Below are positions 17,302-33,134 of a stretch of 64,000 nt of DNA, one piece after another. The stretch comes from a virus (Duplodnaviria > Caudoviricetes), in IMG/VR virus record IMGVR_UViG_3300032030_002018. One strand, 5' to 3'. The position numbers were made by a program, and so were the translations under genes. Under the pieces are notes generated by a model that saw only the letters and a list, made by a program, of their open reading frames with translations, did not search any database and was not told the origin of the DNA. Position 1 is the first letter of the stretch. Every line of letters begins with the position of its first letter.

Positions 17302-17964
17302 ATGAAAAAAAGAATTAGATTAACAGAGAGTGACCTGCACAGGATTGTAAATAGGTCAGTGAAAAGAGTACTACGAGAGTCACAACTTCTTACAGAACTT
17401 GACCCGAGAACATATGCAAATTATGCAAGGGGTCGTGCGGCACAGGGCAATTATAAAAAGGCTGTAGAAGGGCAAGAGTATGCTGCTCAACAGTTTAACA
17501 ATCAATATGGTTATGATAATCGAAACCTAAATGGATATGTTCAATCTGATAGCAATAACCCAAATGTCAAATATATGGGTTACGACACAGATTATTACCG
17601 TATGAGGAATGATAAGAAACCAGGTTATAGATTCAAATGGGATAGCCCTGATTATTATAAAAATCGTTATAATAATAACGTATATGCTACTGAAAGATGG
17701 CAAAGTAAAAATTACCCAGGCAGAAATGATATGGACGACCAAGAAACATTCTCAACATATAATCCTGATACAGATACAAGTAATTCCACAACATACGGTA
17801 GAATGAAATACCAAACGCAACCAAACAGACTTGTAGTATATGGTGATTATGACGGAAGACCAATTAGAAATCAAAATAACAATAGAAGTGGATTGTATGG
17901 TGATGAAGTTGCAAGACAAATGCAAACTGGTACTGGAATTTATAAAAATGGCAAATGGCAATAA
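17302..17964 (+). CDS. LTESDL-leader family protein (putative head-packaged protein), Tyr/Asn-rich payload
   Basis: Starts MKKRIRLTESDLHRIVNRSVKRVLRE; own late-type motif (17272) and terminator. Confidence 0.8.
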   Translation: MKKRIRLTESDLHRIVNRSVKRVLRESQLLTELDPRTYANYARGRAAQGNYKKAVEGQEYAAQQFNNQYGYDNRNLNGYVQSDSNNPNVKYMGYDTDYYRMRNDKKPGYRFKWDSPDYYKNRYNNNVYATERWQSKNYPGRNDMDDQETFSTYNPDTDTSNSTTYGRMKYQTQPNRLVVYGDYDGRPIRNQNNNRSGLYGDEVARQMQTGTGIYKNGKWQ

Positions 17965-23065: not shown

Positions 23066-24223
23066 TTAACTATTTTTGTAAAAAAAATCTTTTTCCCTCT
23101 TAATCAACCCCTCAAATATCCCAAATAAATTCCCAAATGAATTCTCAGCAAGCAAATCATTCATTCCAAGTTTTGTGATTATATCATAAACATTCTTCAT
23201 ATCCCTTCCTTCAGGGTCAATTGGAACATACATAAGAGATTTCATAGCATCAACAGCCTCCTCAGTCATCATTGGCTCTGATAGGTCTATAATCCTCTTG
23301 TTTATATCATATATATCACTTCCTTGACAACCTTCTGTTACTTTGTTTACAATGTTTTCAAGTACCTTTAGTGGCTTTTTCTTATTCCTGACCCTTTCCT
23401 CATTGATTCTTGAAGCCTCATTCACTATATCGTCAACACTTCTCTCATTTTTAATTACATCAGGGAATGTCTTGATAAACGTAGTCTTTCCAACACCTTT
23501 GATACCCTTGATATTATCAGAATTGTCTCCACATATTATTTTCTCCAATACGATATTCTTATGTGTTATTCCAAGCACATCTATTGAGTTTTCGGGTGTG
23601 ACATATTTCTTTATTGAAGGTATATATAATGTAACCGTATCAGATATAAGTTGAGATAAATCCCTGTCTTCAGACACTATGACAACCTTATCATCATCAT
23701 TCTTGTTGTTTACATAATACGCTATAAGGTCATCTCCTTCAATGTCGTCACACATCAACTGTCTTACAAACAACTCCTCCAATATGTTCATCAATACACC
23801 TCTCTGTCTTTGAAACACCTCATCATCAGTTTCAATACGTTTCACCTCACCTCGCTTGCTTGCATAATACTTATCAGCCCTCTTACAGAAATCCATTATA
23901 GCCTTATCATACTCACTCTGACATTCACCATAATGCTTATCCCTGTTAGCCTTATAATCCTTGTATATATTATACCTTAAACTTCCACTATAATCACCGT
24001 CCCAAAAAGTGTAAACATAATTAAAGTCCTTGACTTTTAGGAATCTGTTTATTTGGTAAAGGAACTGGTATATACCACCATATTCCTTCCCTTCAGAATT
24101 CTCCCTTCTGTCAACAAGTGATTTCTTCAACAAGTTATTCCCATCTATCAATAATGTATATGTGACATTTGATTCAATTATGTTATTAGCATCACGTATG
24201 CTTTTTCTTATAACCTGTTTCAT
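23066..24223 (-). CDS. 5'-3' exonuclease / flap endonuclease (Pol I N-terminal, T4 RNase H-like)
   Basis: LLIDGNNL, YKANR, EGDDLIA, SEDRDL, GDNSDNIKGIKGVG motifs. Confidence 0.92.
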   Translation of the reverse strand: MKQVIRKSIRDANNIIESNVTYTLLIDGNNLLKKSLVDRRENSEGKEYGGIYQFLYQINRFLKVKDFNYVYTFWDGDYSGSLRYNIYKDYKANRDKHYGECQSEYDKAIMDFCKRADKYYASKRGEVKRIETDDEVFQRQRGVLMNILEELFVRQLMCDDIEGDDLIAYYVNNKNDDDKVVIVSEDRDLSQLISDTVTLYIPSIKKYVTPENSIDVLGITHKNIVLEKIICGDNSDNIKGIKGVGKTTFIKTFPDVIKNERSVDDIVNEASRINEERVRNKKKPLKVLENIVNKVTEGCQGSDIYDINKRIIDLSEPMMTEEAVDAMKSLMYVPIDPEGRDMKNVYDIITKLGMNDLLAENSFGNLFGIFEGLIKREKDFFYKNS

Positions 24224-24225
24224 CT

Positions 24226-25380
24226 CTATTCTGCATTAGCATAATTGAACAAATCATTGGCAAAATCAATAACCTCCCAGGGATAGTGGAAGGAATCATA
24301 ACTTGCGTCACCAAAATGACCGTATTTTGCAAGATACTGATTTCTTGGTACTTCAGCTTTAAATCTTTTCATTATACCACTTGGAGTACAGTCTATATTG
24401 TTGTCTATGTATTCAATAATACGTTTGGCAAGATGCTGATTCTCATCCATTTCAATATTAATTGATGATGGCTTTGCAATTCCAATCATATATGACAATT
24501 CAACCTTTGCAGTATTGCACAAGCCACTTGCAACTATATTCTTTGCTATATATCTTGCCATATAAGACGCTGAACGGTCAACTTTTGTCATATCCTTACC
24601 TGAAAAAGCACCACCACCAACGCTACAATAACCACCATATTGGTCAACGACAATCTTCCTACCAGTAACACCACAATCTGATATCGGACCGCCAATATTC
24701 CAAGTTCCACAAGGATTCACCGTTATCTCGGTATTGTCATTCCTTATCTTGTCTATAATTTGCTTCTCAAACCCAACCTCGTTATCAACTATACACCTTA
24801 CAATAAATGTCCTTAATAAATCAATATCACATTGATGCATAGCTGAAACCAATATTGACACTATTTTTGATATTCCACAATCATACTCCACAATTACTTG
24901 TGTCTTCACATCAGGACCGATTGTATTACCCATTTTACCAGCCACAAATTGACATAGTTTCTTTGCTACAAAATATCCAAGCGGTAAATATGATTGAGTT
25001 TCATTGGAGGCGTAACCAACAACAAAACCCTGGTCACCTGCGCCAATCTCACCGTCTTCCTTGTCAACGCCTGAGTGTATTTCTGTTGATTGTTTTCCTA
25101 TCAGATTGATAATCTTGATGTTATCAGGATTTAAATGATGTGATTCGGGGAATTTAATTTCACTGAATACTTTTCTTACAACATAATTGTAATCAACATA
25201 CGCGTTAGAGTTTATTTCACCACCCAACACAACAACATTATCCTTCACCATTGTTTCGATGCCAGCTCTTACATTAGTATCAGCTGAAAGATAAGCATCA
25301 AGAATGGCATCACTGATTTGGTCTGCGATTTTGTCAGGATGACCCCAACTTACATATTCACTAACAATAGTTTTTTTCAT
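24226..25380 (-). CDS. metK: S-adenosylmethionine synthetase
   Basis: GHPDKIADQISD, GAGDQG, GRKIVVDQYGG, GGGAFSGKD, KVDRS motifs. Confidence 0.96.
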   Translation of the reverse strand: MKKTIVSEYVSWGHPDKIADQISDAILDAYLSADTNVRAGIETMVKDNVVVLGGEINSNAYVDYNYVVRKVFSEIKFPESHHLNPDNIKIINLIGKQSTEIHSGVDKEDGEIGAGDQGFVVGYASNETQSYLPLGYFVAKKLCQFVAGKMGNTIGPDVKTQVIVEYDCGISKIVSILVSAMHQCDIDLLRTFIVRCIVDNEVGFEKQIIDKIRNDNTEITVNPCGTWNIGGPISDCGVTGRKIVVDQYGGYCSVGGGAFSGKDMTKVDRSASYMARYIAKNIVASGLCNTAKVELSYMIGIAKPSSINIEMDENQHLAKRIIEYIDNNIDCTPSGIMKRFKAEVPRNQYLAKYGHFGDASYDSFHYPWEVIDFANDLFNYANAE

Positions 25381-25493
25381 TTTTTTACTAAAATTAAAGG
25401 TTTAACATCTATTTTTTAACTAAAATTTTGTTAAATATACCCACTTTTTTCGAAAAAAACAAAAAAATATTAATAAAAGTTAACAATAAGCAT

Positions 25494-25522
25494 AAAAAAA
25501 AGCGTCCAAATCGGAACGCTTT
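25494..25522 (-). terminator. Intrinsic terminator (second copy at ~26276-26303)
   Basis: aaaaaaaagcgtcc-aaatc-ggaacgcttt hairpin downstream of the leader ORF. Confidence 0.7.
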
Positions 25523-25598
25523 GAGGATATATTCAATAAGTCTATTGGACTGATTGTTACTGGGGTGGATTAAGTGCGCACAAGGTGGGTTGAACTCA

Positions 25599-26102
25599 TC
25601 ACCATCCAATTCTAATATGACTATCGGCTTGTTTAAACCTATTTATTAATTCATTGTATTGAGATGGAAATAATGCTTGAAATTTTTCTAATGATAGTTC
25701 CCTTTCATCATATTCTTTGTTGAATTCTCCTTCTATTTCATACCATCTTATAAAACCGCCATTTTTAAAGTCTGAATATTCACGCAAAGAAACCAAATAA
25801 ATATAAACATCGTTGTTACCATCCACGCTTACATTATAAACCTGATACATTTTATTACCAAACGGAACTATTATACAATGTGTGCTATATTTGGGTATTT
25901 TTCCATTAGCCTCATCGTTATTCAGTATATCTTTAACAAATGGATAATGACGTTCTAAATCTCTTAAATCTGGAGAATTGTGTAAAACTTGAATTATTAT
26001 ATTTTTTCCGTAAGCATCACTGTTTTCTTTCAAAATTCTTTTCACTGACCTGTTCACAATTCTGTGAAGGTCTGATTCTGTTAGTCTAATTCTCCTTTTC
26101 AT
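25599..26102 (-). CDS. LTESDL-leader family protein, globular-looking payload
   Basis: Starts MKRRIRLTESDLHRIVNRSVKRILKE. Confidence 0.8.
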   Translation of the reverse strand: MKRRIRLTESDLHRIVNRSVKRILKENSDAYGKNIIIQVLHNSPDLRDLERHYPFVKDILNNDEANGKIPKYSTHCIIVPFGNKMYQVYNVSVDGNNDVYIYLVSLREYSDFKNGGFIRWYEIEGEFNKEYDERELSLEKFQALFPSQYNELINRFKQADSHIRIGW

Positions 26103-26376
26103 ATTATTTCTATTATATTATCTTATTTTTCCTTATAAATATCACGATATTTTTGTTTTGTCATATTTTTTACTAAAATTAAAGGTTTAACATCTATTTT
26201 AACATTTTTTTAAGCAAATATACATACATTTTAACTAAAAAACAAAGAAATCTTAATAAAAGTTAACAATAAGCATAAAAAAAGCGTCCCAAAAGGAACG
26301 CTTCATTGATATGTTTTGGTAAGTACAGTTGTATCATCAATAGATACACTAATATCAAAGTTGTATTGATGTATGG

Positions 26377-26859
26377 CTAAGCATCGAATACCCTGTTAAG
26401 ACTCCATTTTCTATGTAATGGTCTTTTATCAGCAGCATCTAATGCTCTATTAAATGATTTGTCAGTTTTAGGCTGCTGCGATGTTTGTTTATCAAAGTCT
26501 TCAAACTCATCATTATCAAATCCGTCAGCACCTCTTACAAACCAATCGCTTGGTCGCATCCATTTACCGCTATCATCTGAATATTCACGCCCTTTAGGTT
26601 CATCAAGTCTATATTGATAATTTGTTTCGGCTCTTGGGTCTCTATGTGGGATAGACCTTAAATACTGTTTGGTATCAGAAGCAAGTCCACGACCAAGACC
26701 TCTTACATCAGCATATGAACGGTTTTTTGCACGTCCAAATTCATCATAATCTATAATTCCGCTATCATCTATATCCCATACTTCATTCAAGGTTCTTTTC
26801 ACTGATTCATTCACAATTCTATGAAGGTCTGATTCTGTTAATCTAATTCTCTTTTTCAT
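26377..26859 (-). CDS. LTESDL-leader family protein, charged payload
   Basis: Starts MKKRIRLTESDLHRIVNESVKRTLNE. Confidence 0.8.
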   Translation of the reverse strand: MKKRIRLTESDLHRIVNESVKRTLNEVWDIDDSGIIDYDEFGRAKNRSYADVRGLGRGLASDTKQYLRSIPHRDPRAETNYQYRLDEPKGREYSDDSGKWMRPSDWFVRGADGFDNDEFEDFDKQTSQQPKTDKSFNRALDAADKRPLHRKWSLNRVFDA

Positions 26860-26908
26860 ATTATATTTATTATATTTCCTTATTTTTCTTTATAAATATC
26901 ACGATATT

Positions 26909-26940
26909 TTTGTTTTTGTCGTATTTTTTATGTATATTTG
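26909..26940 (+). promoter_or_regulatory. Bacteroidetes sigma-A promoter (TTTG-N20-TATATTTG)
   Basis: Consensus match upstream of the 26970 ORF. Confidence 0.7.
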
Positions 26941-26969
26941 TAATATATTTATATTAAAAATGTTAGATT

Positions 26970-27749
26970 ATGTATTTAGAAAGTCCTTTTAAGAGTTGGT
27001 GGGAGGCGAGAGATGTATTCAAGATGCCTCGTTTCTCATTTTATATGGGTTCTTTGTCAAAATGTGAAGGTGTTTACTACAACGATGAAGAAAACGAAGA
27101 ATATAACAGAAAGGAAGCAGAAAAACTTCTTAACATATATAAATTAAAGAAAATGTTGAAAATTATGACAATTTCTTTATTATTGTTGCTGTTTTTCTTG
27201 TATGTTATTGGAAATGTGTTTTTAAGTTGTACAATATGTGTTATATGCTCATATCATATAATACAAGGTGTAATAGACATATTTAAATTAAAGTTAATGC
27301 CTTCGAAATTCTGTAAGAAAACAAGAATGTCATACACATCCAAGGGTTTTGTTTACTTCGTATCGAAACATTTCCTCAAATGGAGCAAATATCCAATAAC
27401 AATAACATCTCACGATATTGGTTGGAAAACTAAATTTGATGATGTTAGATATGAAACCCCTGGATTTTTCTCAATAATATTCGGAAGAAACCCTGATACG
27501 GCATACCAAATATGTATGATGGTTTCAAGCCCTAAATCAGAACTTGAACATCTTAATAAAAGCACATCATTCAGAGACCTAATATATTGGGAAATGATTC
27601 TTTCTTATCTATATGTAGATAAAGACATAGAAAAGGCAAGGAAGATGCGTTCAGGATGTTGGGGAGGAAGCGACGGAAATAAAACACCTGAATGGGATGA
27701 AAGTTTCGTAAAAGACAAATATAAGACAAAAAACACCAGTATGAAATAA
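26970..27749 (+). CDS. Hypothetical membrane protein
   Basis: Hydrophobic segment(s) at aa ~65-105; own promoter; terminator hairpin at ~27729-27764. Confidence 0.65.
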   Translation: MYLESPFKSWWEARDVFKMPRFSFYMGSLSKCEGVYYNDEENEEYNRKEAEKLLNIYKLKKMLKIMTISLLLLLFFLYVIGNVFLSCTICVICSYHIIQGVIDIFKLKLMPSKFCKKTRMSYTSKGFVYFVSKHFLKWSKYPITITSHDIGWKTKFDDVRYETPGFFSIIFGRNPDTAYQICMMVSSPKSELEHLNKSTSFRDLIYWEMILSYLYVDKDIEKARKMRSGCWGGSDGNKTPEWDESFVKDKYKTKNTSMK

Positions 27750-27764
27750 CATACTGGTATTTTT

Positions 27765-28091
27765 TTAGTTCGGATTATATATCACATTGACAGTTGTATC
27801 ACCTGTTATCAACCCATTAACAACAGGTGTTTCTGTTGTATATCCTGTTATTTCAGGACTGCTTACTGCATAATGAGTTCTATATGTCATTTGTTCCGTA
27901 TATTGGCTTGATATAGGTTCGTCATTTTCATCAATATAATTGATAGTTAACGTATACAATATCGGATTATAATGTAAAGCACTACCTTCCTCAACGTAAC
28001 TTACATTAGGATAATCTGTATTCCCTGTGATATACTCTTGATAATCAGCATCATTTTCAAAATAAGTTAAATATCTCTTTTCCATATTCAA
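27765..28091 (-). CDS. Small protein with MucBP-like (mucin-binding repeat) C-terminal domain
   Basis: YTLTINYIDENDEPI...YAVSSPEITGYT...TTVNVIY matches the MucBP repeat pattern; late motif at 28105. Confidence 0.65.
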   Translation of the reverse strand: MNMEKRYLTYFENDADYQEYITGNTDYPNVSYVEEGSALHYNPILYTLTINYIDENDEPISSQYTEQMTYRTHYAVSSPEITGYTTETPVVNGLITGDTTVNVIYNPN

Positions 28092-28112
28092 TTCTATTTT
28101 TCTTTATAAATA

Positions 28113-28822: not shown

Positions 28823-30010
28823 TCAGTCCAACGTTTCCTCTTCCTCAAAATCAACTTCCTCAACATCAGACTCATAAATGTCACTCCTGTCACTTATCTC
28901 ACCAATCTTGTTCAATATTTCCTTTACATTATTCTTCTTATATTCATCAAGTTTATCTTCAGATATAATTCCATTATGCACGCAACACATTGTACCTGAA
29001 TATGTTATATTGAATGGCGTTGGCAATTGGTTTTTAGTTACAGACAGTTTTGTGACAATACCATAGTTATATGTCTCACCCTTTGCTGTTGCCGTAAGTT
29101 TCTTTGTAGCCGCTTTGGCAACGCCCCCAAGGTGAATAATAAGTCTTGCACCATAGAAGAATGTCTTGCCACCCTTAAGTTCCAGTGATACACCTGCCAT
29201 TGAATTCATATTGTCCTGCCATATCTTGTTAACACAGAACATTGTATTGGTATATTTCTCACTTACCTTTCTCGATGTTGGTATTCTATCGTTTATAATA
29301 CTGTTGAATGACTGTGATATTGCACCAGCATCAAATTGATTATTACCTAATTTACTTGTAAGTGACTTAAATGATATGATTGAGCCAATACTATCCCATA
29401 TAAAGCATATTGGTTGTTTTATTTTACCATCATCTTGATAATCAAGTATTTCATTGATTGAATATGCAATATCCTCAATTACAGCACGATGACGTCTTTT
29501 GGAAACTCTTTTACCGGCTGAGTAATCCATATCGCCGTATTTATTAACCAAAGTCTTTGTGTCGTAATATATGAAATTACCTTTATAATTGATAATTCCT
29601 TCAGTTACCTCACCTGTATCTTCGTCAATAATTTCTCCGTATACAGGTTCTGCTTCCACGCCACAGTCGATTGCGTATTTCCAATCAAAATTACCCTCAG
29701 TCTCATAAATAACTGGCAATATTCCTTTCTTTTGACAGGCAGCGATAAGACAATTTTTTATAGTTGATTTGCCTGTATTTGACCATCCTGTACATAATGT
29801 CAAATAACCCATTGGTATTCCAGGTAATTTAAGAGCATTCTCAAATGCTTCTGGTAACACAATGAAATCAAGAGGTTTTTCTGCACTTGACACTTCAAGG
29901 TCACTTCTCTTTACAGGTTTGTTATTCTCTTCAATATTGATTCCCAATAACTTATTTATATCATCAATACTTGGAATTTCAAATGTTTTCTTTTTAATAG
30001 CTTGCTTCAT
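28823..30010 (-). CDS. RecA/UvsX-like recombinase
   Basis: LPGIPMG..GWSNTGKST Walker A, IYETEG, WDSIG, GGK motifs; likely start MKQAIKK at 30010. Confidence 0.85.
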   Translation of the reverse strand: MKQAIKKKTFEIPSIDDINKLLGINIEENNKPVKRSDLEVSSAEKPLDFIVLPEAFENALKLPGIPMGYLTLCTGWSNTGKSTIKNCLIAACQKKGILPVIYETEGNFDWKYAIDCGVEAEPVYGEIIDEDTGEVTEGIINYKGNFIYYDTKTLVNKYGDMDYSAGKRVSKRRHRAVIEDIAYSINEILDYQDDGKIKQPICFIWDSIGSIISFKSLTSKLGNNQFDAGAISQSFNSIINDRIPTSRKVSEKYTNTMFCVNKIWQDNMNSMAGVSLELKGGKTFFYGARLIIHLGGVAKAATKKLTATAKGETYNYGIVTKLSVTKNQLPTPFNITYSGTMCCVHNGIISEDKLDEYKKNNVKEILNKIGEISDRSDIYESDVEEVDFEEEETLD

Positions 30011-30608
30011 AATTTTCTCTAATTTTTTTCTTATAGCATAATCTGCATAATGGTTGGTAAACATCGTCTCCTCCAATCATAAACTGATTACCTTCCTTTA
30101 TTATATTGCCATCCTTATCAAACCTTGCATTAACTGTTGCCTTTCTACCACATTTACAACTTGATTTCACCTCAAATATATCGTCTGCAATCTCAAATAA
30201 TCTTTTAGATGCTTCAAATAGTTTAGATTTGAAATCAGTTCTAAGCCCATAACATATAACATCCGTATCCATAAGGTCAACAACATCTGATAATTGGTCA
30301 ACCTGTTCTGGTGTCAGGAATTGGCATTCGTCAACCAATACCCATTTGTTTGGCGGTTGTTGATTAGCCATTCTAACATCGTTATATGTCTTAACAGCCT
30401 CGTAAATATTGACATCAGAAGCAACACTTACACATTCCATTTTCAATCCAGCCCTTGATTTGACATATCTCTTTCCGTCTCTGTTATCAACTCCTGGTTT
30501 AAGTAACATAAATGGTATTCCCTTTTCCTTGAAACTATGGGCAGTTGCCAAAAGATTCAAACTCTTGGCACTCCCCATAGCACCGAAATAAAACCTTAAT
30601 TTAGCCAT
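29994..30608 (-). CDS. tdk: Thymidine kinase
   Basis: GAMGSAKS, VDECQF, YGLRTDF, zinc CxC...CRLC. Confidence 0.95.
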   Translation of the reverse strand: MAKLRFYFGAMGSAKSLNLLATAHSFKEKGIPFMLLKPGVDNRDGKRYVKSRAGLKMECVSVASDVNIYEAVKTYNDVRMANQQPPNKWVLVDECQFLTPEQVDQLSDVVDLMDTDVICYGLRTDFKSKLFEASKRLFEIADDIFEVKSSCKCGRKATVNARFDKDGNIIKEGNQFMIGGDDVYQPLCRLCYKKKIRENYEASY

Positions 30609-31727: not shown

Positions 31728-33134
31728 TTACCATTCATCATCATAGTCTGGTTGTCTTACAATACCGTCATCTATTCTTCTTTCTATTTCATTTGTTAGT
31801 TGTTCTCTTCCGTAGATGTCGAACCATCTTTCAAGTTCATCACTTATTGGTATCTGTCTTCCATATCCACTATGCCCACGCATAAGAAAGTCTAATTCTA
31901 TTTCTCCGTTTGCATAAGTTCCTCGTAATGTGTACCAATTGTTGTCACATCTTGCCTCAAAATCGTAATATCCATCTGGGTTTTCTGATATATCTGTGAT
32001 ATGCCAATCACTGAAATCTATCTGACCGCCACCAAGATTCATTTCACTTATAATTCTTCTAACTGAATTATTTACAATTCTATGCAAGTCACTTTCTGTA
32101 AGTCTTACTTTTCTCATTGTGTTTCTATTTTTGTTTTCCTGTCTTATTAAATTGTGATATTGAGCCATTGTCATTTCGTCTCCATCTGACTTGGTGAGTT
32201 TTTGACCCCATACCTTATCCCTGTTCCTTCTGAAATCTTTCAATGCTCTCCATTTCTCGTAAGGGCTTTGAAGATGTAGTGGTCTATCGTCATTGTTTGT
32301 ACTATCGCTTTCATTCTCTTCAGAATCATAGTCATTACGTCCAGTAACATCTTTTGTTACTTTTGGTTCTTCTCCGTGAATAAATCCTCTGACTGTCCAA
32401 GAAAGAACACCATCCTCACCGGAGTCGAAAGAAGTGTCACGAAGATATGTGTAGTTCATCAATGTCATAACAGGAATGCCTGAAGTCTTACTTAAATCAG
32501 TAATAATTCGCCTCATTTCGCCTGGTGATAGATTCTCATCATTATACATACATATAATGTAATCCTCAGTCCATATTCTTCCATTATACTGTGTTTTATG
32601 ATAAAACCAGTCATTGAATTTTCTAGATGAGAACTGAAAATCAGAATCGCTGTTTATTAATGAGTAAAAATCATTTGAGTAAAGTCCTGTGTAATTATGG
32701 ATAATGTCATCATAAGCGTCTTTATTGTTGTCAACAATTTCATTTATCTGACCATACGTAATACCACCATTAGCTTGTCTGAACTTAATGATTTGTTTGA
32801 ACGCATCGTAATCATCAAAGTCACCGGAATAATTATCATAATAAAAAGTCGCAACATCTTCATTATAATCTTCTTTGTTATTGTCATATTCCTCCAATAA
32901 CCATTCAAGTTCATTCGCACGCTCATATTGAAAATCGTCCAATAAACTGTTAACACATTCTGCGTAAAATCTTGATGAAGCCTCTTTATGTGTTGTTTGC
33001 TCTTTGCCATAGCACATCTTATACTCTTCCCTGTCGTCAAGAGTAGCCCAATATCCAAATGGATGGGCACCGTAATAGTCCCACATTAATTCGATATCAT
33101 TCCATTCAACCAAATCCGGTGTTGCTGTTAACAT
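31728..33134 (-). CDS. Acidic protein with an internal LTESDL leader (fusion, or nested start at 32117)
   Basis: Internal MRKVRLTESDLHRIVNNSVRRIISE begins at 32117. Confidence 0.7.
   Translation of the reverse strand: MLTATPDLVEWNDIELMWDYYGAHPFGYWATLDDREEYKMCYGKEQTTHKEASSRFYAECVNSLLDDFQYERANELEWLLEEYDNNKEDYNEDVATFYYDNYSGDFDDYDAFKQIIKFRQANGGITYGQINEIVDNNKDAYDDIIHNYTGLYSNDFYSLINSDSDFQFSSRKFNDWFYHKTQYNGRIWTEDYIICMYNDENLSPGEMRRIITDLSKTSGIPVMTLMNYTYLRDTSFDSGEDGVLSWTVRGFIHGEEPKVTKDVTGRNDYDSEENESDSTNNDDRPLHLQSPYEKWRALKDFRRNRDKVWGQKLTKSDGDEMTMAQYHNLIRQENKNRNTMRKVRLTESDLHRIVNNSVRRIISEMNLGGGQIDFSDWHITDISENPDGYYDFEARCDNNWYTLRGTYANGEIELDFLMRGHSGYGRQIPISDELERWFDIYGREQLTNEIERRIDDGIVRQPDYDDEW

Follow-up and report, generated by a model that had tools for sequence, protein, structure and literature searches.

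A locus of two adjacent genes upstream of the S-adenosylmethionine synthetase gene metK, found in a 64,000-nucleotide stretch of DNA from a T4-related phage of the rumen (record IMGVR_UViG_3300032030_002018), is probably a decayed cargo slot of an IS1595-family transposon, which was duplicated in tandem at a microhomology of ~12 nt and in which one payload was exchanged. The stretch (hereafter the window) corresponds to positions 73371-137370 of the 334,687-bp virus record (34% G+C, CheckV 96%), which also carries a gp23-type capsid protein gene (PF07068, 212.8 bits); coordinates refer to the window, except for those marked G000, which refer to the whole phage genome (334,687 bp). The evidence consists of direct observations, namely the repeats with their breakpoints and the hybrid junction, the derivation of the 3' arm from a transposase gene, the same boundaries in sister transposons, and a cassette indel in relatives. 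Each of the two units would be the remainder of the cargo side of an element, comprising a late promoter box, a 5' untranslated region (UTR), a 26-codon leader, a payload and, in antisense, the 3' end of a transposase gene. The parts of the two units, built around the open reading frames (ORFs) A and B, are as follows.

25381-25495: AT-rich spacer copy 1, upstream of metK, the distal 3' arm of unit A; matches 26166-26273, with no further copy in the genome
25496-25565, plus strand: unit A remnant of an IS1595-family transposase gene, comprising its final ~23 codons, KKASKSERFEDIFNKSIGLIVTGVD followed by a stop (tblastn E 1e-3; blastn 57 nt, 82%)
25500-25522: unit A hairpin, putative terminator of ORF A on the opposite strand (fold -10.2 kcal/mol, then a T-run)
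25599-26102, minus strand: ORF A, 167 amino acids
25599-26024, minus strand: payload A, residues 27-167 of ORF A; function unassigned, no Pfam match, AF2 pLDDT 41
26025-26102, minus strand: leader A, 26 codons, MKRRIRLTESDLHRIVNRSVKRILKE (leader hidden Markov model (HMM) E 8.5e-19)
26103-26172, minus strand: promoter and 5'UTR of ORF A, gene-strand box GTGATATTTATAAG, with the box at 26135-26142; 92% identical to the ORF B copy
26155-26172: duplication junction with ~12-nt microhomology, GTTTTGTCATATTTTTTAC, where two repeat families overlap
26166-26271: spacer copy 2, a duplicate of the metK-upstream spacer, now ahead of the ORF A promoter
26272-26316, plus strand: unit B remnant, shorter, SIKKASQKERFIDMF (blastn 39 nt, 95%, E 3e-13; tblastn 73% over 15 amino acids)
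26282-26303: unit B hairpin, putative terminator of ORF B (fold -16.8 kcal/mol)
26377-26859, minus strand: ORF B, 160 amino acids
26377-26781, minus strand: payload B, residues 27-160 of ORF B; opens with an EF-hand-like loop, DIDDSGIIDYDE; AF2 pLDDT 57
26782-26859, minus strand: leader B, MKKRIRLTESDLHRIVNESVKRTLNE (leader HMM E 1.3e-19; predicted helix, residues 9-27)
26860-26930, minus strand: promoter and 5'UTR of ORF B, with the box at 26892-26899

An earlier reading of the letters alone (the sequence-only reading) had described two adjacent units of ~780 bp with shared 5' and 3' parts, and this is borne out by the alignments: identity between the 5' arms (26025-26159 and 26782-26916) amounts to 89% over 135 nt, and that between the 3' arms (25370-25533 and 26155-26315) to 79-89% when taken piecewise, or 82.6% over 155 nt, the units following each other head to tail with a period of 757-785 nt. 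Within the 5' arm, the promoter/5'UTR segment is 92% identical between the units and the leader segment 85-87% (68 of 78 nt), while the 3' arm is patchy, with 81% identity in the hairpin region and 95, 56, and 100% in successive patches of the spacer. Since the whole 3' arm occurs in only two copies in the genome (E 1.9e-38), this repeat cannot be put down to chance. Identity stops exactly past the L-x-E codon of the leader and returns ~15 nt ahead of the hairpin, inside the transposase remnant, and between these two points the payloads and the 60-67 nt past each stop codon are 40% identical, which is the random level. The coding sequences beyond the L-x-E had been called unrelated, and protein comparisons agree: BLASTP of ORF A against ORF B aligned residues 1-36 only, and a comparison of ORF A with the profile of the ORF B family by hhalign, the kind of check proposed for payloads that might be diverged homologs, aligned only 30 leader columns and found no payload homology. 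Because payload and 3'UTR are at 40% identity, without similarity at the protein or profile level, the units are not homologous over their full length, and a later replacement of a payload is required. The junction GTTTTGTCATATTTTTTAC is a hybrid of TCGTATTTTTTA (26919-26930) and TCATTTTTTTA (25377-25387), that is, of the two outer ends of the repeated region; the hybrid character and the microhomology had both been noticed from the letters, and the overlap of the two repeat families at this place, with ~12 nt of microhomology, confirms them.

The origin of the 3' arm becomes apparent when the hairpin and the adjoining 45 nt are read on the plus strand, which yields KKASKSERFEDIFNKSIGLIVTGVD and a stop codon in unit A and KKASQKERFIDMF in unit B. 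Both match the C-terminus of an intact 325-amino-acid transposase encoded elsewhere in the phage genome (G000 236829-237806), which belongs to the IS1595 family (PF12762, 5.5e-44; zinc ribbon PF12760) and of which 15-23 C-terminal codons are left in the window. Between the stop codon of ORF A and the premature stop of the remnant (25563-25565) lie ~33 nt, and the ORF A stop directly adjoins what was the natural end of the transposase gene, now degenerate; unit A, like the relative L050, keeps the geometry of intact copies, in which the payload stop abuts the transposase end, and unit B has a shorter remnant followed by 60 nt of other sequence. Both remnants begin at one deletion endpoint (...AAGCATAAAAAAA/GCGTCC), which argues that the transposase gene was deleted before the duplication. 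The hairpin, GCGTCC-N4-GGAACGC, falls in the transposase codons KASQTERF, and it is maintained by compensatory changes, reading GCGAATC...GATTCGC in the intact relatives L065 and L066, and ACACTCC...GGAGTGT in the remnant of L050. Judged by these changes, the hairpin structure is selected, most simply as the terminator of the convergent gene. The 3' terminator arm proposed by the sequence-only reading is shared by the two units and is a fossil of an IS1595 transposase gene's end. In the GC-richer 3'UTR of ORF A, a search for tRNAs or tRNA-like remnants found none, the stretch in question being the transposase remnant.

Intact elements of this family measure 2.3-2.7 kb and are bounded by 25-bp terminal inverted repeats (TIRs), GGCAATTATAGACGAGTTGACACGA. 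The phage copy (G000 235245-237923) has TIRs and no target duplication, and bacterial copies have, together with TIRs, 8-bp target-site duplications (TSDs), TAATTAAT in L069 and TCAAGAAA in L089; a TIR search directly around the transposase gene had found none, as the right-hand TIR is situated on the far side of the passenger gene. Relatives of the transposase were found on four IMG/VR phage contigs and at 44 loci in metagenome-assembled genomes (MAGs) of rumen or gut Bacteroidales. Two of these copies are 97% identical at the amino acid level and stem from rumen MAGs classed as Bacteroidales and Bacteroidaceae, which provides a clue to the host of the phage. At one chromosomal locus, the element (34-45% G+C) lies in DNA of 60% G+C, flanked on one side by a glycoside hydrolase family 2 beta-galactosidase gene and on the other by a type I restriction-modification system; in the rumen Bacteroidaceae MAG (L112:7487-14001), the element directly adjoins an operon for type I restriction-modification that includes two HsdM genes.

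A convergent leader gene that ends at the transposase stop is present at all four IMG/VR phage loci and at ~23 of the 26 bacterial loci with enough sequence, and in five MAGs the leader occurs only beside the transposase. The passenger payloads are nearly all different among element copies. In pairs of sister copies (L083/L076, L075/L080, and G236/L072) the transposase gene on one side and the leader plus the part upstream of it on the other are collinear and 70-80% identical, whereas the DNA from the transposase stop to the L-x-E is unrelated and of differing length, so that the two boundaries are the same as in the window. The promoter/5'UTR of the window units is likewise homologous to the cargo promoter within the transposons, including the bacterial copies L081 and L102. 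Behind each of two further leader genes of the phage (G000 162586 and 227889) comes a terminator and, directly after it, a solo TIR, with 21/25 and 25/25 matches; these genes are probably transposase-less cassettes. The solo TIRs lie at G000 163007-163037 and 227813-227839, and the two leader genes share their 5'UTR.

Relatives of the two payload genes bear on the proposed exchange. For ORF B, 22 full-length homologs were found (45-87% identical), each behind a leader, and for ORF A three, P0049 (59%), P0050 (50%), and P0052 (35%), which are all leader-bearing. In the three closest orthologs of ORF B the leader DNA is more diverged than the payload DNA (77 vs 90% identity in L049, p=0.0018; 67 vs 87% in L053, p=0.00014; 69 vs 82% in L050, p=0.012), and the leader of ORF B is 87% identical to that of neighboring ORF A. 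The histories of leader and payload thus differ. In L055 the payload is chimeric, beginning like payload B and then switching, and in L050 the ORF B homolog is followed by a long transposase remnant, as behind ORF A. The relatives L051 and L052, which are 98% identical, differ by one 386-bp cassette of leader plus payload; in L051 this cassette sits in the terminator hairpin behind the ORF B homolog and is flanked by a 30-nt direct repeat of half the terminator. The proposal that payloads are exchanged by recombination thus gains support from the unequal divergence of leader and payload in the ORF B orthologs, which points to recombination at their boundary, and from the one-cassette indel, but the order of events and the route are ones that we infer. 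A fixed order of the two genes across relatives, which would have spoken against exchange, was not seen: at seven metagenome loci with ORF B relatives the neighbors differ each time, and metK is never adjacent.

Searches for the payloads themselves returned little. No paralogs of either payload were found elsewhere in the phage genome (tblastn and blastn), an Atlas search with payload A gave nothing, matches of payload A to FG-GAP repeats look spurious, and the AF2 models of both payloads are too low in confidence for fold searches. For payload B, the domain EF-hand_5, found in 54% of the nearest Atlas cluster (score 0.81), is a weak lead. The ORF B family alignment had no match in IMG/VR, and the ORF A alignment is too variable for a profile scan. 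Among the relatives of metK in IMG/VR (32 loci, <=54% amino acid identity), none has a leader gene in the surrounding 6 kb or is syntenic past metK, hence they are unable to test the locus; the 24-nt exact spacer pattern had no match in IMG/VR, nor did megablast of window 24200-28100 against 50,697 phage records yield one.

In the promoter region, the sequence-only reading had pointed to a late motif, TATAAATA, on the plus strand. This is the wrong strand, as the genes are on the minus strand, where the actual box reads TATTTATA, the reverse complement of TATAAATA. Genome-wide, TATTTATA is positioned 20-39 nt ahead of an ATG in 35 of 42 upstream occurrences, and the same box precedes the gp21-type prohead protease gene and the divergent neighbor orf259. 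On the basis of its position ahead of starts and its presence at these two genes, TATTTATA appears to behave as a late-type promoter element. TATAAATA itself was rejected as a T4-type promoter, since it has no positional preference genome-wide. Spacer copy 2 contains, on the minus strand, a perfect Bacteroidota-type -7 box, TATATTTG (TAnnTTTG; 26215-26222), at the place where the metK-side copy reads TATATTTA (25432-25439), and ORF A may have both an early/host-type and a late promoter.

The leader (consensus over 26 codons MKKRIRLTESDLHRIVNESVKRVLxE) defines a family of ~29 clear members and several weaker ones, which were detected with the HMM and are scattered through the phage genome. Tandem arrays of leader genes are common there (at 203 kb, 214-215 kb, and 135-136 kb), and an all-against-all blastp of the 29 payloads found no two that are similar. 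Synonymous sites of the leader vary freely, with Ser encoded by TCN or AGT and Leu by five codons, while the peptide is kept, which argues that the leader is a functional peptide under purifying selection, beyond any role as a DNA homology arm. Leader and terminator had been suggested to act as homology arms; recombination at the leader/payload boundary is in line with this, but the leader is also a conserved peptide in ~30 genes and the supposed terminator is a transposase fossil. Leaders A and B end in ILKE and TLNE, and E occupies that position in 26 of 29 members. The genome encodes a gp21-type prohead protease (PF03420, 56.7 bits), and its gp23-type capsid protein has ...LISE/ATAADNSG near the N-terminus, at the place where T4 gp23 is cut. 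By eye, the leader appears unrelated to the capsid targeting sequence (CTS) of T4, MKTYQEFIAE. In T4, (L/I)-x-E is the cleavage motif of gp21 (PMC9026906). The kept peptide, the gp21-type protease, the LISE site of the capsid protein and the promoter box shared with the protease gene together suggest that the leader is most plausibly a T4-style head-targeting and processing tag. Against this stands the occurrence of the leader in bacterial chromosomes and in the middle of ORFs, which a pure N-terminal capsid tag would not predict. A literature search on the leader returned no paper describing it.

Several further observations concern the leader family. Transposon-linked copies often have an internal leader, in which an N-domain of 110-250 amino acids, a linker (..ENKQYNTNRNM), the leader and the payload follow each other in a single frame (L064, L065, L067, L069, L071, L072, L075-L077, L080, L083, L086, L089-L091, L096, and G000 235708-236826). 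Their N-domains fall into ~4 families, which recur with differing payloads, and their linker DNA resembles the 5'UTR of stand-alone leader genes. The ORF B homologs P0007, P0009, P0013, P0017, P0020, and L050:210-779 have a C-terminal tail like the second half of the leader (..INRIVSESIRRNLR), and P0025 is one ORF with two leaders.

The locus would have arisen when an IS1595-family element, or its cargo side, landed upstream of metK. The transposase gene would then have been deleted save for its last ~25 codons, which were kept as carriers of the terminator, the hairpin within them serving to terminate the cargo transcript. A unit of ~780 bp, bounded by the start of metK and the promoter's outer edge, would next have been duplicated in tandem at the ~12-nt microhomology, and one payload replaced via double recombination or gene conversion with another cargo gene, with crossing over both in the arm of promoter and leader and in that of the transposase remnant. 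The last two steps could also have been a single unequal exchange between co-infecting phages with different payload alleles. Several points weigh against this history. Shared 3' ends are a feature of only 5 of the ~29 leader-family members, all of them traceable to the transposon. No TIR (searched in 24900-27300) or TSD is left around the window units, so that descent from the transposon rests on the homology of remnant and promoter, and the 115-nt spacer is not recognizable as transposon DNA. No relative with this metK locus was found, the single-cassette ancestor thus being unobserved. Leader DNA of random family members is ~75-85% identical over 78 nt, which makes a poor substrate for homologous recombination, and the patchy identity of the arms (56-100%) implies more than one event, indeed more than the four steps just outlined.

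Were the single exchange the whole history, alleles of co-infecting phages at the metK slot would have been joined at the 12-nt microhomology with no later swap, and the 8-20% divergence of the arms would be that between lineages. ORF B and the closest ortholog sampled do differ to a similar degree (87.5% nucleotide identity), the slot of sister transposons does hold differing payloads, and the junction is a hybrid; yet spacer patches of 95-100% beside one of 56% are unlike uniform divergence or one event, and no relative with the metK locus came to light, for which reasons we regard this history as rather unlikely. An independent side-by-side insertion of two IS1595 cargo elements, or of transposase-less cassettes, which then decayed and had their flanks homogenized by gene conversion, would draw on the mobility of the element, on the different payload in each copy, and on the solo TIRs behind two other leader genes. 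It would leave the one shared deletion endpoint to be explained, along with the 115-nt non-transposon spacer that is otherwise unique to the region upstream of metK, and it sits poorly with the lack of TIRs and with a junction that is a simple hybrid of the outer ends, which makes it an improbable origin.

An ordinary tandem gene duplication, after which the payloads diverged beyond recognition by very fast evolution, we judge to be very improbable. Tandem arrays of leader genes are common in the genome, and injected or anti-host proteins can evolve fast, but non-coding flanks of 81-100% identity contrast with the random 40% of the payloads and the 60 nt past the stop, the payload families evolve at ordinary rates (45-87% identity for ORF B, 35-59% for ORF A), and the profile comparison was negative. 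Even less credence is given to an integron-like, site-specific cassette system with the hairpin or the leader as the recombination site. One-gene cassettes bounded by a hairpin and the L051 insertion inside a terminator hairpin are reminiscent of such a system, whereas hairpin sequences vary widely in the family and the breakpoints fit homology or microhomology; no integrase was noticed among the neighboring ORFs scanned, although a genome-wide integrase search was not made. The duplicated and partly exchanged cargo slot therefore remains the reading that we favor.

Such a slot can be compared with several known systems. One likeness is to passenger-carrying IS1595 elements (transporter insertion sequences (IS)) and their transposase-less derivatives, the mobile insertion cassettes, as the intact copy has DDE_Tnp_IS1595, a zinc ribbon, 25-bp TIRs, 8-bp TSDs (in the bacterial copies) and one passenger, and what the window units retain is the promoter-bearing passenger together with the transposase 3' end, the passenger being convergent with the transposase gene. 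In contrast to transporter IS, unrelated payloads are found here behind one leader and a late-type promoter of phage kind, jumbo phages and hosts exchange the element, and the window copies lack transposase and TIRs and were duplicated locally. In T4-type phages, modular shuffling is mediated by promoter early stem-loops (PeSLs), in which a stem-loop is joined to an early promoter of the sigma-70 type within a single, compact intergenic motif (Arbiol et al., 2010, PMC2839356; Comeau et al., 2014, PMC4122927). Common to both systems are small, non-essential genes of plastic regions that lie between repeated promoter/stem-loop motifs and show indels and replacements between relatives, and in both recombination between nearby repeats could excise a one-gene circle; the L051/L052 indel, bounded by a repeated motif, may by analogy be of the same kind as those at PeSLs. 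The box is of late type here, the repeat includes 26 codons, and the stem-loop is located at the other end of the gene, in a transposase fossil: the hairpin lies ~140 nt from the TATTTATA box, at the end of the upstream gene, which does not correspond to a PeSL. The T4-like cassette shuffling suggested earlier thus applies to the conserved ends and the swapped payloads, but the ends derive from a transposon cargo slot and not from PeSLs.

A second likeness to T4 concerns its internal proteins (IPs), the locus of which is reportedly polymorphic in T-even phages, as described by Repoila and coworkers in 1994. IPs of T4 carry a CTS, and the IP locus is polymorphic among T-even phages (PMC3012670, PMC9026906). 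Here too, a short N-terminal leader ending in (L/I)-x-E precedes diverse proteins with fast turnover, in a phage with a gp21-type protease and a gp23-type capsid protein. Unlike the CTS, the leader has 26 residues instead of 10-19, appears to be of unrelated sequence, and occurs in ~30-40 genes per genome, inside longer ORFs, and on a transposon in bacterial chromosomes, and its packaging and cleavage are putative. Rhs/CDI (contact-dependent inhibition) polymorphic toxins also combine a conserved N-terminal module, a sharp boundary, unrelated and exchanged C-terminal payloads, and tandem "orphan" modules. The proteins studied here are small, lack both an immunity gene and the context of a secretion system, and give no indication of toxicity, hence the likeness is one of logic only.

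Modular shuffling was known from T4 (PeSLs and the IP locus) and cargo-carrying IS1595 elements from bacteria, and the present locus links the two. Of the two conserved ends of the phage cassette, one is a leader that codes for a peptide and the other the fossil end of a transposase gene, and the same slot, with unrelated payloads, is carried on an active transposon between jumbo phages and Bacteroidales hosts, which offers a testable route by which ~30 unrelated small proteins of one phage could have gained one tag. Tentatively, and as a possibility more than an expectation, the promoter-leader and the transposase-end hairpin may form a standard cargo slot that is traded by rumen jumbo phages and the IS1595 family, the payload of which would be transcribed late, terminated, loaded into the capsid, and cut by the gp21-type protease. 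Any payload placed in the slot would then be expressed late and handled alike via the leader, and the phages would have a plug-and-play library at their disposal, made up of injected proteins, for which host chromosomes would serve as the reservoir. If the leader is a capsid-loading tag, it could also be a natural model for phage protein delivery.

The genes around the cassettes and the other leader genes of the window are listed below. The sequence-only reading had mentioned a RecA-like gene close to the cassettes, which proved to be the UvsX-like gene.

24226-25380, minus strand: metK, full-length S-adenosylmethionine synthetase gene, 384 amino acids, downstream of the cassettes (PF02773 2.2e-51, PF00438 4.3e-28, PF02772 5.3e-22)
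26970-27749, plus strand: orf259, divergent neighbor, preceded at 26945-26960 by a separate late-type box, ATATTTATATTAAAAA; the duplicated region has its outer edge here
28823-30076, minus strand: UvsX-like recombinase gene (phrog_97, 1.7e-20)
17302-17964, plus strand: further leader gene, 220 amino acids
Starts at 32117 (minus), 58661 (plus), 62578 (minus), 63051 (minus), and 63954 (plus): more leader genes

The prohead protease gene, located outside the window (G000 221939-223093), harbors an intein-like insert (PF14890, 3.9e-6), and, as judged by eye, so does the gp21-type protease gene of the relative L052 (6846-7991). Between orf259 and the UvsX-like gene, a small MucBP-like ORF (27765-28091, minus strand; PF06458, 2.7e-6) has the same late box, and its N-terminal motif Y..Y..YITG..DYPNVS reappears at the start of a BspA-type leucine-rich-repeat protein (G000 138127-139347).

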